From a virus (lineage: Duplodnaviria; Caudoviricetes), in IMG/VR virus record IMGVR_UViG_3300034894_000006, positions 1 through 55,967 of that record: a stretch of 55,967 nt of DNA; one strand, 5' to 3'. The notes beneath the pieces are model-generated. The model did not search any database. It saw only the letters and a program-made list of their open reading frames with translations, and was not told the origin of the DNA. Positions 205-54,790 of the stretch are shown piece after piece (position 1 is the stretch's first letter; each line of letters starts with the position of its first letter). The translations under genes and the position numbers were made by a program.

Positions 205-1464
205 ATGCGTAATACATTGATCTCAATGGCGATTCTGGCCGGCCTGCGTAACAGCGAACCGGGCACAGAGGCCGCCACGGCGCCCATCTCCGAAACCGCC
301 AAAGTCATCATGTTCAATACGGCTGAGCCCGTTTTGATGGACGACAAGGCTGCGACGGAGCTAAAGGCGCCGATTCCCAAGGACGCGAAGGAAGCTCCGG
401 ACGTGATCGTGGCGAACCGTGAAAGTGCGTGGTGCAAGCTGCAAGCCCGTCGCTTCGACGACGCCAAGGGCTGGGATGTGATCGAGGCCGCGCAGAACAT
501 TACGGCGCAGTTGTCGATTATCCCCCTGGACATCGCACGGTACGTGCAAGGTCTTTACAAGAACGTTCCCACGGTCGGTAAGACCAAGACGGGAAAAAAG
601 ACCAATCCGCAGCACGATAGGCGGCTAGAGAAGTACAGCAACATGTGCAAAATGGTGGGGGAAGAACTCATCAGATTGCACAATATCCCGGAGAATCTGC
701 CGGGTAGTGCAGGCGCGTCCTACACGGCGCGTATGCAATACTTCTCGCGCGGGCAGTACTGGTTGCGCCTCACCTCGGACGTGCGCAAAGCCCTGCAATT
801 CGACTTGGACCTTAACAAGCCGATGATGGGTAGCACTTCGGGAGAGCTGCACTATCAGACGTACCGCGATGTGCTCGTCGGCGCCAATGCGGCGAAAGCC
901 GCGAAGGCAAAGGCCGAAGCCGCCGCGCAAGCCGCAACACCGGAAAGCGAGGAGGAAATCGCAGATGCGCCCGCGACTCCCGGTACGCTGGAAGTCAACG
1001 GTAAGCTCCCGGAAAAGGTCCGTAGTCAATGGAATCGCTTGCACGGTATCGTGCATGGTGCCCAGTACGAAACGGACCCCACCGAGGCCAAGGACAGTGA
1101 TAGCGTTATCAACCTTGGCTCTCGCGTCCTAAGCCACGCTTGTTCCCTGTACGATCACATGCTGGAGGGCATGGTGGGGAACGAGGATATGGACGCCCTC
1201 GCCAAATGGTGGCACGCACGCATCAAAGGCCGTAAGGCGGGAGACATCATGGTGGGCAAGGCCACGAGACCGGCCGACATCGATGTGATCGAAGCCGCAA
1301 AGGCTTTGGGCGCTGAGATCCAAACGCACGAGGCGAACGAGGCCGGAGACCTGGCAGACTTGGAAGCCGCGCAGCTTGCGGCGACCAACGAAGCACCGGA
1401 TACGGACGGTTTGCCCGACGTGGAAACGGGAACGGATGCCCCCGACGCCAGCGTGAACGAGTAA
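205..1464 (+). CDS. Hypothetical protein, 419 aa, Ala/acidic-rich
   Basis: Long ORF with GAGGG SD upstream and a terminator downstream; visibly more GC-rich than most of the genome; no recognised motif. Confidence 0.8.
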   Translation: MRNTLISMAILAGLRNSEPGTEAATAPISETAKVIMFNTAEPVLMDDKAATELKAPIPKDAKEAPDVIVANRESAWCKLQARRFDDAKGWDVIEAAQNITAQLSIIPLDIARYVQGLYKNVPTVGKTKTGKKTNPQHDRRLEKYSNMCKMVGEELIRLHNIPENLPGSAGASYTARMQYFSRGQYWLRLTSDVRKALQFDLDLNKPMMGSTSGELHYQTYRDVLVGANAAKAAKAKAEAAAQAATPESEEEIADAPATPGTLEVNGKLPEKVRSQWNRLHGIVHGAQYETDPTEAKDSDSVINLGSRVLSHACSLYDHMLEGMVGNEDMDALAKWWHARIKGRKAGDIMVGKATRPADIDVIEAAKALGAEIQTHEANEAGDLADLEAAQLAATNEAPDTDGLPDVETGTDAPDASVNE

Positions 1465-4481: not shown

Positions 4482-4610
4482 TGGGTGGCGTTGCAAAGGG
4501 TTACTTCGACTGCGAATCGAGAGGTTGTGGGTTCAAGTCCCACTGTAGCCTAAAGGCTATGTAGCTCAATTGGATAGAGCGCTAAAATACCCTTTGCGCC
4601 TGTTCCCCCA
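4482..4610 (+). ncRNA. yrlA: YrlA-type Y RNA (Y3) with circularly permuted tRNA-like domain
   Basis: Ro stem gcaaagggt/accctttgc; T arm gtggg-ttcaagt-cccac; loop-closed acceptor stem tgtagcc-taaa-ggctatg; D arm gctc-aattggata-gagc; TROVE gene nearby. Confidence 0.88.
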
Positions 4611-5911: not shown

Positions 5912-5951
5912 TTAGCGCGAAGCGCGCATGTCGTCTTCGATAGGAGTTTTT

Positions 5952-7313
5952 ATGTCACAAAGGAATCGTCCGAATGTAACAGAACCAAAACATACGCACG
6001 GTGGAGTAGTCGCGTACCCTCACTTAAAGCCTATACAGCAGCTTCGACGTTCTGTATTGGCGTGCTTGCTCTGGGAGGATCAGTTTTATGAAGATGGGGA
6101 ATCGATTGCTGCACGTATCTCCACTGTTGCGGATAACGTTTCCCCCGAAGAGCTTTCTAGTCTTGCTGTTGAAGCTAGATCTGTGCATCATCTTCGCCAT
6201 GTTCCTCTACTTCTGCTCAAAGCCTTAGCCAAACGTGGAGGTAGGATTGTTGGACAAACAATTTATGAAACCATCCAAAGAGCAGACGAGCTTACTGAAT
6301 TTCTTGCTGTATATTGGAGTCCCGACAAACAGAAGCTATCCGCGCAAGTCAAAATCGGCCTTGCACGGGCTTTTCGTAAGTTTAATGAATACGAACTTGC
6401 GAAGTACAATCGAGATAATGCGATTAAGCTTCGCGACGTATTATTCCTGTGCCACGCGAAACCAAAAAATGCGGCTCAGGAGGCTGTATGGAAAAGGCTT
6501 GTTGACGGCAAGCTCCAAGTGCCGGACACGTGGGAAGTTGCGCTCTCGGGCGGCGCAACCAAAGGGGAAACCTTCACAAGACTAATAAAGGAAGAGAAGC
6601 TTGGATATCTGGCACTTCTACGCAACCTACGAAACATGGCCGAGTCCGGAATGGACATGGGAATCGTCAAGGATGCAATCCTGGCGCGCAAAGGGGGCGC
6701 ACACAGAGTGCTTCCGTTCAGGTTCATCGCCGCTGCCCGTGCGTGCCCCCAGATGGAGCCATATCTTGACCAGGCCCTCGTCGGTTCTATTGAGGATTCC
6801 CAGAAGCTCCCCGGAACTACCATTGTTCTTGTGGATGTATCGGGAAGCATGCTCGCCCCGATTTCTACTAAATCGGATCTCACTAGGATGGACGCTGCGT
6901 GCGCTTTGGCCTCTTTGATTCACGGAGATCGTCGTGTGTTTTCGTTCTCGAACCACACGAAAGAAGTGGCACCGCGATACGGGATGGGGGGAGTGGATGC
7001 CATACGTAGCTCGCAGGGACATAGCAACACGCAGCTTGCGGAAGCTGTAGCCCATGCCAATAAGATTCCGCATGATCGACTCATAGTGATTACGGATGAA
7101 CAAGCTACACTCCGCCCCGCATACTATGGAGCGGCAACTATCCCTGATCCAATTGCCAAAAAAGCTTACATGATCAACGTGGCATCTTATCAAAACGGCG
7201 TTGGTTATGGTAAGTGGATCCACTTGGATGGCTTTTCGGAGTCTGTTATCAAGTGGATTCATGCTGTGGAGTCTCAATCTAACACTGAAAAGGAGGGTCC
7301 CGTTATCGATTAA
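5952..7313 (+). CDS. rsr: Ro60/TROVE-domain RNA-binding protein with C-terminal vWA domain
   Basis: LWEDQFYE, RADEL, F..Y.LAKY, TWE, ALLRNLRN; MIDAS DVSGS...ITDEQ; GFSE; AGGAG SD before ATG 5952. Confidence 0.95.
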   Translation: MSQRNRPNVTEPKHTHGGVVAYPHLKPIQQLRRSVLACLLWEDQFYEDGESIAARISTVADNVSPEELSSLAVEARSVHHLRHVPLLLLKALAKRGGRIVGQTIYETIQRADELTEFLAVYWSPDKQKLSAQVKIGLARAFRKFNEYELAKYNRDNAIKLRDVLFLCHAKPKNAAQEAVWKRLVDGKLQVPDTWEVALSGGATKGETFTRLIKEEKLGYLALLRNLRNMAESGMDMGIVKDAILARKGGAHRVLPFRFIAAARACPQMEPYLDQALVGSIEDSQKLPGTTIVLVDVSGSMLAPISTKSDLTRMDAACALASLIHGDRRVFSFSNHTKEVAPRYGMGGVDAIRSSQGHSNTQLAEAVAHANKIPHDRLIVITDEQATLRPAYYGAATIPDPIAKKAYMINVASYQNGVGYGKWIHLDGFSESVIKWIHAVESQSNTEKEGPVID

Positions 7314-15838: not shown

Positions 15839-16706
15839 GATTCTTATTGGTACGGCAGCAGTTGCTGCGATTTTGTTGACGGGTTGTTCTAAGGTAACAG
15901 CAGGTCACGTGGGAGTTAAGGTCCACCTACTTGGAGCAAGCTCCGGTGTGGATTCGGAGGAACTGGGGCCGGGGCGTTATTGGATCGGCATTAACGAAGA
16001 GCTGTATCTGTTTCCCACGTTCACGCAGAACTATACGTGGACCAGTAAGCCTATTGCGGGGGATTTCGGGTTGGAGCTGGGGGATGAATCCCTAGACTTC
16101 CAGACTATAGAGGGTTTGAAGGTCAATGCGGATGTCGGCATTTCGTACCATATCAATCCAGCTAAGGTTACTGATGTGTTCCAGAAGTACCGCAAAGGTG
16201 TGGATGAGATCACGGACGTGTATCTGAGGAACATGGTTCGAGACGCTTTGGTGGAAGTTGCATCCGATCTTCCCATTGAGTCCGTGTACGGGGCAGGTAA
16301 GACAGCCTTGATGGATGAAGTCCAGCAGTTGGTAATGGAGCAAGTTAGCCCTATTGGCATTGAGGTTGAGAAGGTCTACTGGATCGGAGAGCTTCGTCTT
16401 CCGCAAACGGTGGTCAACAGCATCAACGCGAAAATCGAAGCGACGCAGATCGCGCAGCAAAGGCAGAATGAGATCGTTACTGCCCAAGCTGAAGCGCAGA
16501 AGCAAGTTGAGCAAGCGAAGGGTCAAGCGGAAGCGCAACTCACGAGGGCTCGTGCGGAAGCTGAAGCGCTACAACTCCGTGGAGACGCTCTCAGACGTAA
16601 TCCGGAGATTATACAACTCAACGCTGTAGAGAAGTGGAATGGTACGCTCCCGACCTTTATGGGTGGTGAGCAAGCTGTTCCGTTCATTCAGGTGCAGAAG
16701 CCATGA
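15831..16706 (+). CDS. SPFH/band-7/prohibitin family lipoprotein
   Basis: LLTGC lipobox, GHVGVKV, AEA-rich coiled coil, EKWNG.LP. Confidence 0.92.
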   Translation: MRKILIGTAAVAAILLTGCSKVTAGHVGVKVHLLGASSGVDSEELGPGRYWIGINEELYLFPTFTQNYTWTSKPIAGDFGLELGDESLDFQTIEGLKVNADVGISYHINPAKVTDVFQKYRKGVDEITDVYLRNMVRDALVEVASDLPIESVYGAGKTALMDEVQQLVMEQVSPIGIEVEKVYWIGELRLPQTVVNSINAKIEATQIAQQRQNEIVTAQAEAQKQVEQAKGQAEAQLTRARAEAEALQLRGDALRRNPEIIQLNAVEKWNGTLPTFMGGEQAVPFIQVQKP

Positions 16707-16984
16707 AAGTAATCAGCAAAGAGGATTTGTGCGCGTCAGACCCCGATAAACAAGTATCTAAATTTGTTGCGGGTAAGCTGTATCACGCAGGCCCTTGTAC
16801 GAAAGGGAAGCCCATATGCCACACCTATATAAGGTTATGTGTACAGACGCCCTCAGGGCAGGGCCTCTATATGGTGGATTTGGAGGGCAAGTCTCAAAAT
16901 TCAAACCTGGATCAGAACATAGTAGGCTATTATGAGCTTCCGGAGGATGTAATATCCGTAGTGCTCAATAAACAGGTGTTCTAG
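16703..16984 (+). CDS. Hypothetical protein
   Basis: ATGA overlap with SPFH gene. Confidence 0.6.
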   Translation: MKVISKEDLCASDPDKQVSKFVAGKLYHAGPCTKGKPICHTYIRLCVQTPSGQGLYMVDLEGKSQNSNLDQNIVGYYELPEDVISVVLNKQVF

Positions 16985-16992
16985 TTTTCGGA

Positions 16993-17067
16993 GCCACTGA
17001 AGCATTTAAGGTGATGCACCGGTTTTGTACTCCGGAGAACAGAGTTCGATTCTTTGTAGTGGCTCCA
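16993..17067 (+). tRNA. tRNA-Thr(UGU)
   Basis: gccactg/tagtggc acceptor stem, gcat/atgc D stem, ccgg(t)-tttgtac-(t)ccgg, cagag-ttcgatt-ctttg, encoded CCA. Confidence 0.85.
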
Positions 17068-17071
17068 TTTT

Positions 17072-17151
17072 TGGGGTGTATCCCCTCGGTCTTATAAGCC
17101 GTAGAAAGGGTAGACGGTTACACGTGGGTTCGATTCCCATCACCCCGACCA
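17072..17151 (+). tRNA. Irregular tRNA-like RNA, anticodon UAU (Ile), with rearranged D region
   Basis: tggggtg/caccccg acceptor + ACCA; T arm gtggg-ttcgatt-cccat; cggt-cttataa-gccg placed soon after U8A9; no conventional D arm. Confidence 0.7.
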
Positions 17152-17164
17152 TTAAGGAGATGGT

Positions 17165-17548
17165 ATGCAAATTTTTAGTAGTGGAGTTTCGTGCGGTGTG
17201 TTTATTATGTCAGGGATACGCACTAGTACTTATTCAGAAGAAGATAGATGGTTCCGTTATATTATGCAGAGGGTACTTGAATTCAGGAGATCTAATGGTG
17301 TATATACTTTTCTTTTTTCAGATAACTTTAAACACAAACTTAGCGGGGAACTTTTAGCTAAGCTGATTCTAGATAACAAATTAGGGGAGCTTGCGTCTAC
17401 TGGTAGAACCAGAAGCGCTAGCACAGAAAATGACATACAAACATGGATGTTCAAACCAGATATGGACGCCATTGATAGATTTCTTAATAGGGTGGAGGTA
17501 AAACAAAAAGTTGGAACTGAAAGTAATAGCGGCATCACTACAGGATAG
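17165..17548 (+). CDS. Hypothetical protein (putative paralog family)
   Basis: AAGGAG SD; SCG...FSD...NKLGE...IQTWMF. Confidence 0.75.
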   Translation: MQIFSSGVSCGVFIMSGIRTSTYSEEDRWFRYIMQRVLEFRRSNGVYTFLFSDNFKHKLSGELLAKLILDNKLGELASTGRTRSASTENDIQTWMFKPDMDAIDRFLNRVEVKQKVGTESNSGITTG

Positions 17549-54717: not shown

Positions 54718-54790
54718 TGGAGGCACGGTACGGAGTCTAACCGCCATCTCCCTCAAATCAGAAAGGTGCTCTTACGTTGAGCTACGTGCC
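54718..54790 (-). tRNA. Degenerate tRNA-like gene, anticodon GAU (Ile)
   Basis: GGCACG/CGUGCC + UCCA; GCUC/GAGC D stem; CCUUU-CUGAUUU-GAGGG; T loop UUAGACU. Confidence 0.55.

Follow-up and report, generated by a model that had tools for sequence, protein, structure and literature searches.

We examine a tRNA-like gene with the anticodon UAU that lies at positions 17072-17151 (+) of a complete 55,967-bp virus genome bearing terminal repeats (Caudoviricetes; IMG/VR record IMGVR_UViG_3300034894_000006); this whole stretch is referred to below as the window, and the parts of the gene are listed in Table 1. The acceptor stem, T arm, discriminator A73 and encoded CCA are normal and lie where a sequence-only reading of this DNA had placed them. 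A D hairpin is absent. After U8 A9 come UCCCCU (17081-17086) and then directly the anticodon arm (17087-17101), as that reading had also described, leaving only 6 nucleotides between A9 and the anticodon stem and no local D hairpin. The same reading proposed that the partner strand of the D stem and a D-loop-like stretch with its GG had moved to the 3' side of the anticodon arm, immediately before the T arm, and that the RNA was a tRNA built on a different secondary structure. Both proposals are borne out by the evidence presented below: the displaced helix covaries and is predicted from an alignment, and the stretch before the T arm holds the A, R and GG of a D loop together with a covarying, Levitt-like R:Y pair. 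We are nearly certain that this rewired structure is real, conserved and based on a new strand connectivity.

The gene escapes standard tools, as had been anticipated. ARAGORN calls three tRNAs in the window, none of them at 17072-17151, and it detects 0 of 328 members of the rewired gene family to which this copy belongs. The Rfam tRNA model RF00005 gives the locus 27.9 bits against a gathering score of 29, and its alignment deletes 15 D-arm positions while inserting 18 nucleotides in the variable region; the local D hairpin that defines the cloverleaf is lacking. We built a covariance model on the family (R1), in which the order of parts is acceptor strand, UA, N, a 3-bp helix strand, 2 nucleotides, an anticodon arm with a 4-bp stem and 7-nucleotide loop, a 6-nucleotide linker, the second helix strand, an N-A-R-nn-GG loop, Y and the T arm. 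The window copy conforms to this order and aligns with R1 over its full length at 92.2 bits (E ~4e-22), far beyond chance; the canonical tRNAs of the window score at most 15 bits under the same model. Some GenBank records do list rewired genes as tRNAs with the wrong isotype (EGole, Mildred21 and Yaboi in Table 1), apparently because the conserved linker was mistaken for the anticodon loop.

The structure depends on whether the early CCC pairs with the GGG that follows the linker, a helix (hereafter the D-type helix) that would enclose the whole anticodon arm. Our first search pattern fixed both triplets and is therefore uninformative on this pairing. In three further scans one C was forced to another base while its proposed partner was left free; these returned at least 120, at least 119 and 22 stretches. 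Among the matches listed, 188 of 192 unique sequences with a change are compensated by a Watson-Crick partner, 3 have a G.U pair and a single one has a mismatch. Tabulating the 5'/3' triplets in all 293 unique sequences in the set at that stage, again among the matches listed, gives CCC/GGG in 101, CUC/GAG in 78, ACC/GGU in 70, CCG/CGG in 13, UCC/GGA in 8, CGC/GCG and CCA/UGG in 5 each, CAC/GUG in 4, CCU/AGG in 3, and GCC/GGC and AGA/UCU in 1 each, with the non-Watson-Crick remainder made up of CUC/GGG (G.U, 2), UCC/GGG (G.U, 1) and UCC/GAA (mismatch, 1). In the family we see 19 different triplet combinations. Covariation between CCC and GGG, the check proposed together with the original claim, is thus present, and the homologues come out for the pairing.

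Alignment-based folding leads to the same helices. When applied to 146 MAFFT-aligned representatives, RNAalifold predicts the acceptor stem, the nested 3-bp helix, the anticodon stem and the T stem unaided. Sliding the 3' partners by 1-3 columns in these representatives lowers pairing from 89% to 37-49%, and because pairing is lost in this way we reject the shifted register that RNAfold favours for the single sequence. The 100% pairing of the D-type helix in alignment A3 is by construction, as A3 was filtered on it; the unbiased figure is the 188 of 192 given above. For the remaining stems (acceptor, anticodon and T), 97.2% of the cells are paired compared to 69.9% after shuffling, and none of 500 shuffles reaches the observed score, a result that is repeated on the 146 representatives. 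Covarying pairs are found at 7 of 7 positions in the acceptor stem, 4 of 5 in the T stem and 3 of 4 in the anticodon stem, where the fourth is an invariant C:G. At the edge of the D-type helix, the equivalent of U17081 is a base other than U in only 8 viral stretches, where it faces its partner as A:U (5), G.U (1) or C.U (2), and the partner itself is nearly always U; U17081:U17111 fits a weak pair of the 13:22 type. The neighbouring position 17085 is a base other than C in a single viral stretch and is invariant in A3, and the equivalent of 17086 is T in at least 90% of A3 rows.

The stretch between the D-type helix and the T arm reads N-A-R-n-n-G-G-N-n-n-C-A-Y across the family. Its R and Y change together: in 320 sequences we count AU 197, GC 91, AC 12, GG 11, UG 4, GU 3 and others 2, and the first 83 sequences had already given AU 48, GC 27 and others 8. 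A mutual-information scan over the 320 sequences returns only two strong signals outside the helices, namely this R:Y pair and a coupling of anticodon position 35 with the base after GG. At the level of sequence, the R:Y covariation is the signature of the R15:Y48 Levitt pair, and in the window copy the Levitt-like pair would join G15 (17113) and C48 (17123). For the less frequent G:G form there is a precedent in tRNA-Cys (PMC9976931).

How could such a chain be traced through a tRNA? We use as reference the canonical order, in which position 9 is followed by the 5' strand of the D stem (10-13), the D loop (14-21), the 3' strand of the D stem (22-25), position 26, the anticodon arm, the variable loop and the T arm. 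In the numbering map that we infer for the rewired RNA, U-CCC would be 22-25, the next C would be 26 and the U.U would be 27:43; U-N-G of the linker would be 43-45 with AAA as a bridge, GGG-U would be 10-13, then would follow A14, R15, G18, G19 and residue 20, and Y would be 48. Put differently, the block 10-21 would be shifted from its place before residue 22 into the place of the variable loop. The chain past U8 A9 would enter the D-type helix at its core end (U, CCC), go straight to the anticodon arm, return via the 6-nucleotide linker and the other D strand (GGG, U), and then run through the D loop (A14, R15, G18 G19, U20) and Y48 to the T stem. The tertiary contacts that go with this map would be U8:A14 and those of G18/G19 with the T loop. 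The D-type helix and anticodon stem would form one long interrupted hairpin, stacked coaxially as these two elements are in an ordinary tRNA; the linker is the larger side of the asymmetric internal loop between them, and the U.U sits where the 27:43 pair would be, the anticodon stem itself having 4 Watson-Crick or wobble pairs. With the T stem reached from the D loop, a separate variable loop would be unnecessary, and the usual L shape would be attained through a different strand connectivity.

The anticodons of the family are restricted. Although the anticodon was unconstrained in the descriptor, the 341 unique sequences hold UAU 207, GAU 90, UCU 20, CAU 16, CCU 5, UCG 2 and ACG 1, that is, only NAU and NCU/NCG, which are of Ile type or Arg, although the CAU members could be either Met or lysidine-dependent Ile tRNAs; the same 448 loci contain 2,895 canonical tRNAs of all 20 isotypes (ARAGORN). 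Scans that forbid A35 return 41 stretches, of which 29 have all three helices, inner and outer, every one with UCU or CCU (one of these, L382, is doubtful as it has no T arm); the remaining 12 look like chance matches. Scans that forbid U36 return 16 stretches and no family member. Two further positions follow the anticodon. All 21 Arg-type sequences carry A after GG, where 304 of 307 Ile-type sequences carry U, and the discriminator is A or G in 19 of 21 of the former and A in 299 of 307 of the latter. Table 1 of PMC9976931 lists A20, C35, U/G36 and A/G73 as the bacterial Arg identity set and A73, U20 and A35 U36 A37 A38 as the bacterial Ile set. Against that listing the window copy has A35 U36 A37 A38 and A73 outright, and U20 under the proposed map of the relocated loop only. 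That the isotype-specific bases coincide with bacterial identity elements argues that the relocated loop would occupy the site of the D loop and that synthetases would read these RNAs. Since the core is shared by both types, the Arg forms may have arisen from the Ile form by an anticodon switch.

Now we consider whether the RNA is used in translation or serves some other purpose. One alternative is a structured tRNA-like RNA outside translation, such as a decoy that draws off a tRNA nuclease or a modification enzyme of the host, or an RNA that regulates by binding isoleucyl- or arginyl-tRNA synthetase. There is some reason to think so: the rewired fold departs from every tRNA known to be accepted by the bacterial translation machinery, and the same phage has another tRNA mimic, a YrlA-like RNA adjoining a Ro/TROVE gene, so non-translational mimicry does occur in this genome. 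A decoy, however, would be expected alongside the canonical tRNA, and in phage tRNA clusters we find that the rewired gene replaces the canonical tRNA of the same anticodon. Restricting the count to loci that hold 10 or more canonical tRNAs, we find a canonical UAU in 1 of 34 rewired UAU loci and in 21 of 70 rewired GAU loci (Fisher p = 8.6e-4), and a canonical GAU in 20 of the 34 and 7 of the 70 (p = 2.8e-7). Likewise, a canonical UCU occurs in 0 of 11 rewired UCU loci and in 116 of 274 rewired Ile loci (p = 0.0035). The crAss-like phage 'tikkala' gives a single example: its rewired GAU occupies precisely an unannotated gap that has tRNA-Trp on one side and tRNA-Met on the other, and the array around it includes a canonical UAU and no canonical GAU. 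This replacement disfavours the decoy, which the sequence-only reading had raised as a possibility. So does the retention of every element that EF-Tu and the ribosome would need (the 7/5 acceptor-T branch, T loop, a 7-nucleotide anticodon loop bearing U33 and A37, A73, and CCA or at least C74), as does the high AUA usage of the window phage, where AUA makes up 336 of the 973 Ile codons in 71 called open reading frames at 45% G+C. The other tRNAs of the phage, Thr(UGU) and Gly(UCC), likewise read codons ending in A. On these grounds we consider a role outside translation improbable. It is likely instead that the gene product is a working elongator tRNA-Ile(UAU), which would serve the frequent AUA codons of the phage, and this would entail its processing, its charging by the host isoleucyl-tRNA synthetase and its decoding of AUA.

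Several observations weigh against the rewired fold and its use as a tRNA. The energy of the single sequence in the proposed fold is -21.4 kcal/mol compared to a minimum free energy of -25.6, the three D-type pairs have a probability of ~0.11 in the thermodynamic ensemble, the folding z-score relative to shuffles is -0.5, and the helix is short, with just 3 Watson-Crick pairs and the U.U. Folded alone, the sequence favours no one structure in particular. The conservation of the core is also partly by construction, as the search patterns fixed several of the 'invariant' bases: the TA at U8 A9 was set in every pattern and descriptor, which accounts for its invariance in alignments A2 and A3, and the U, the G and the last two A of the linker were preset as well. 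The restriction to Ile and Arg must be read with the sampling in mind, since loci were seeded with Ile and Arg patterns and other isotypes are excluded only in those neighbourhoods. Among identity elements, the window copy lacks three minor Ile determinants of E. coli (C4-G69, C29-G41 and U12-A23), which may not be those of the host; in the proposed numbering it has G4-C69, G29-C41 and G12-C23 instead. An A23:U12 pair does turn up in the family, in 47 of the 90 members with GAU and 21 of the 207 with UAU. Finally, an unmodified U34 of the UAU anticodon could misread AUG.

If the rewired order exists in the gene only, enzymes such as those of phage RNA repair might cut the precursor and rejoin its pieces as a canonical cloverleaf. 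Rearrangement at the RNA level does happen in some algae and archaea whose tRNA genes are permuted or split, and two bacterial copies (L441 and L481) carry an insertion of ~20 nucleotides in the T loop. Yet the canonical order would here require two precise cuts and two ligations within the core, the linker and U.U are conserved as though they belonged to the mature RNA, the commonest neighbours in 260 loci do not include a ligase, kinase-phosphatase or endonuclease of this kind, and the gene is found in very different phages and in bacterial chromosomes. We therefore give this explanation very little credence. The sub-threshold Rfam score and the ARAGORN miss might have pointed to a decaying pseudogene or chance look-alike, but the covariation data refute this: hundreds of copies in unrelated phages show compensatory changes, which extend to all four helices, and the window copy reaches 92.2 bits on the family model.

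The rewired gene is widespread, with several hundred copies in viral contigs. The pattern derived from our alignment matched at least 117 viral contig stretches; the first copy set held 83 unique sequences, and in 120 copies clear of contig ends the acceptor is paired at 7 of 7 positions in 105, 6 of 7 in 13 and 5 of 7 in 2. A descriptor in which anticodon and linkers were free, used together with R1, also caught divergent members, some with ACG or UCG anticodons and some with other linker lengths; 334 of 342 descriptor hits share the architecture (2, 4, 6), where the linker has 6 nucleotides. A megablast of 3 kb around the window gene against the phage collection gives no match. When isolated phages are searched with the tRNA pair in a sensitive BLAST, the rewired element is found, unannotated and at ~80% identity, in the Streptomyces phages LilMartin, MulchMansion, Angela and Coruscant, in Microbacterium phage Magritte, and in the crAss-like phage cr130_1 and bajarodcaudo virus 1. 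Further BLAST searches add ~45 cultured Streptomyces phages (Stanwilliamsviridae), Microbacterium phage A3Wally and Kehishuvirus 'tikkala', a cultured crAss-like phage of Bacteroides cellulosilyticus. In cluster-BE Streptomyces phages (L001, L002, L511) the rewired Ile(GAU) gene always lies between a 'nucleotidyltransferase' gene (5') and an FtsK-like translocase gene (3'), and CCA is not encoded in these copies. In 13 loci there is more than one distinct rewired gene, and in some loci two different rewired Ile genes stand in tandem ~14 nucleotides apart, one of standard form and the other (55 bits) with a longer, different linker. The neighbours most often seen beside viral copies encode HNH endonucleases, in 62 of 260 loci, or DUF559-type proteins, in 31 of the 260, and such homing-type endonucleases suggest horizontal spread between phages. 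No processing or charging enzyme that would make a dedicated partner protein is found near the rewired genes in these 260 loci.

Cells carry the gene too. A scan of one genome per prokaryotic species returns 70 stretches, of which the covariance model accepts 68 as family members. A nearly identical rewired UAU gene is found in isolates of the Cytophagales genera Chryseolinea, Chryseosolibacter, Dawidia, Ohtaekwangia and Parachryseolinea, on megabase contigs and within arrays of up to 17 tRNA genes. These arrays (L454, L444, L505, L507 and related loci) span ~4 kb and are partly syntenic between genera, and ARAGORN reports odd four-base 'anticodons' in them. The Bacteroidota copies with the T-loop insertion are rewired UAU genes of the Cytophagales type in which the insertion is itself a small hairpin; this may be an intron-like insert or the mark of a disabled copy. 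We also considered whether TilS has been lost from those Cytophagales whose chromosome carries a rewired UAU gene, and whether a rewired CAU is the sole tRNA-Ile2 of Pedobacter nyackensis. The first is ruled out by a TilS-type PF01171 protein of ~450 amino acids in 5 of 5 genomes and the second by three canonical CAU tRNAs in the same organism, and therefore no cell is seen to depend on the rewired form. In cells it looks accessory and is possibly mobile.

Around the window copy, the canonical tRNA-Thr(UGU) lies a few nucleotides upstream, with the rewired gene 5 nucleotides behind it, and the two are probably co-transcribed; this position and the encoded CCA also speak for a working tRNA. A scan of 16500-17500 finds no promoter-like or terminator-like site. 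The flanking genes encode an SPFH/Band 7 protein and a DnaB-like helicase. Elsewhere in the window, ARAGORN overlooks a second tRNA-like sequence, 90 nucleotides from tRNA-Gly(UCC). It is a cloverleaf whose anticodon loop includes GAU, but GG is missing from its D loop and its T loop is degenerate. The YrlA-like RNA mentioned above has a long closing stem with T-arm-like, acceptor-like and D-arm-like hairpins, and the TROVE-domain gene begins 1.3 kb downstream of it; one of the ARAGORN calls, a 'tRNA-Arg(gcg)', is probably part of this RNA and no tRNA.

Table 1. Coordinates of the rewired gene, of other features in the window, and of further loci (positions preceded by a locus handle). Canonical numbers within the core follow the proposed map.
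Feature	Position	Strand	Remarks
Acceptor stem, 5' strand	17072-17078	+	7 nucleotides; U1.G72 wobble and six Watson-Crick pairs; from sequence
U8 A9	17079-17080	+	canonical-like; kept in 6/6 BLAST-found homologues
U	17081	+	faces U17111; weak fourth pair atop D-type helix; mapped to 22
CCC, proximal strand of D-type helix	17082-17084	+	mapped to 23-25; pairs with GGG 17108-17110, encloses anticodon arm
C and U	17085-17086	+	mapped to 26 and 27; U.U with U17102
Anticodon stem, 5' strand	17087-17090	+	CGGU
Anticodon loop	17091-17097	+	CUUAUAA; U33 17092, UAU 17093-17095 (reads AUA), A37 17096, A38 17097
Anticodon stem, 3' strand	17098-17101	+	GCCG
Linker	17102-17107	+	U-A-G-A-A-A; mapped to 43/44/45 and AAA bridge
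GGG, distal strand of D-type helix	17108-17110	+	mapped to 10-12; partner left free in scans
Relocated D loop	17111-17123	+	UAGACGGUUACAC; numbered U(13) A14 G15, two bases, G18 G19 U20, four bases, C48
T arm	17124-17140	+	5-bp stem, loop UUCGAUU
Acceptor stem, 3' strand	17141-17147	+	
Discriminator and CCA	17148-17151	+	A73 17148; encoded CCA 17149-17151
Canonical tRNA-Thr(UGU)	16993-17067	+	end 17064 by Rfam, 17067 by ARAGORN
YrlA-like RNA	4487-4600	+	RF02553 36.4 bits, below gathering score 69
ARAGORN 'tRNA-Arg(gcg)'	4483-4552		
TROVE-domain (Ro60/Rsr-like) open reading frame	5928-7313	+	
Second tRNA-like sequence	54722-54790	-	RF00005 27.5 bits
EGole gene 108	L511:295-371		annotated tRNA-Leu (UUA); by R1 rewired Ile(GAU), 94 bits
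Mildred21 gene 169	L513:301-376		annotated tRNA-Phe(gaa); by R1 rewired Arg(UCG), 76 bits
Yaboi gene 148	L512:301-378		annotated tRNA-Val(aac); by R1 rewired Arg(UCU) variant, 53 bits
Rewired UAU with T-loop insertion	L441:5211-5287	-	R1 58 bits
Rewired UAU with T-loop insertion	L481:3735-3810	-	R1 54 bits
Tandem rewired Ile genes	L131:872-950 and 964-1040	-	likewise in L136, L160, L180, L196
Homing-endonuclease-like neighbours, examples	L317:5745-6212; L129:324-983		

Phages commonly carry the rewired core, a tRNA architecture that has gone unrecognised. In the full-text literature (main texts of articles) we found no description of this fold; in a 2020 review of non-canonical tRNAs (PMC7609411) the words phage and virus do not appear, and a 2024 article, in its abstract, describes all known bacterial tRNAs as canonical. 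Bacterial and phage tRNAs are treated as uniformly cloverleaf, and a widespread family that keeps the residues of the tertiary contacts while reconnecting the strands would show that the L shape needs no cloverleaf. It would also account for the gaps left without annotation and for the mistaken isotypes in phage tRNA clusters, correct censuses of phage tRNAs and codon usage, and offer tRNA engineers a naturally validated alternative scaffold. A more ambitious idea, about which we are doubtful, is that nature has, in the rewired core, a second way of making the L shape, one that bacterial translation accepts and that phages and mobile tRNA arrays keep for a reason beyond ancestry, namely escape from host enzymes that recognise the canonical D arm or variable loop; such enzymes could be tRNA-targeting defence nucleases, or modification or quality-control enzymes. 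If true, the phage would have a protected supply of scarce AUA and AGR decoders during infection. Because cultured Streptomyces, Microbacterium and Bacteroides phages carry the rewired gene, the rewired tRNA is directly testable.

It is instructive to set this RNA beside known systems. With canonical tRNA-Ile (RF00005) it shares the 7-bp acceptor, the 5-bp T stem, the GUUCRA loop, the 7-nucleotide anticodon loop with U33 and A37, A73 and CCA, as well as the UAU anticodon, the position in tRNA clusters and, probably, the L shape and tertiary pairs; the difference is that the canonical form has a local D hairpin, whereas in the rewired form the 5' D strand and D loop replace the variable loop. 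The anticodon has a bacterial precedent in the rare tRNA-Ile(UAU) that reads AUA without lysidine, for example in Mycoplasma mobile. D-armless animal mitochondrial tRNAs (mt-tRNA-Ser(AGY) and nematode forms), in the account that PMC7609411 gives of them, also have no D hairpin between position 9 and the anticodon stem and an extended helix below the acceptor/T branch. In that account, however, the mitochondrial forms have lost the D arm and have a short unpaired connector, no contact of G18 G19 with the T loop, a floppy core and adapted partner proteins (PMC7609411), whereas the rewired RNA retains the D helix, A14, R15, G18 G19 and an isotype-specific residue 20, merely reconnected, and unlike them it is set in phages and bacteria with standard bacterial factors. 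The allo-tRNAs and tRNA-Sec, as far as PMC5389517 describes them, have 8/4 or 9/4 branches, while the rewired RNA has an ordinary 7/5 branch and no canonical D arm; allo-tRNAs are likewise non-standard tRNAs that came from metagenome mining.

Class II tRNAs (Leu, Ser, Tyr) resemble it in length, with ~20 nucleotides between the anticodon stem and the T stem in both cases. Their variable arm is a hairpin of its own beside a canonical D arm, whereas the rewired stretch pairs with the segment 5' of the anticodon arm, and neither the mutual-information scan nor RNAalifold predicts a conserved internal hairpin in the relocated stretch. Lastly, red algae have circularly permuted tRNA genes, which encode the 3' half ahead of the 5' half and regain the canonical order via a circular RNA. 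The order of segments differs from that of the cloverleaf there as it does here, but in permuted genes the mature termini lie inside the gene, while in the rewired gene the acceptor strands stand at both ends and the rearrangement is internal, where it is probably retained in the mature RNA.

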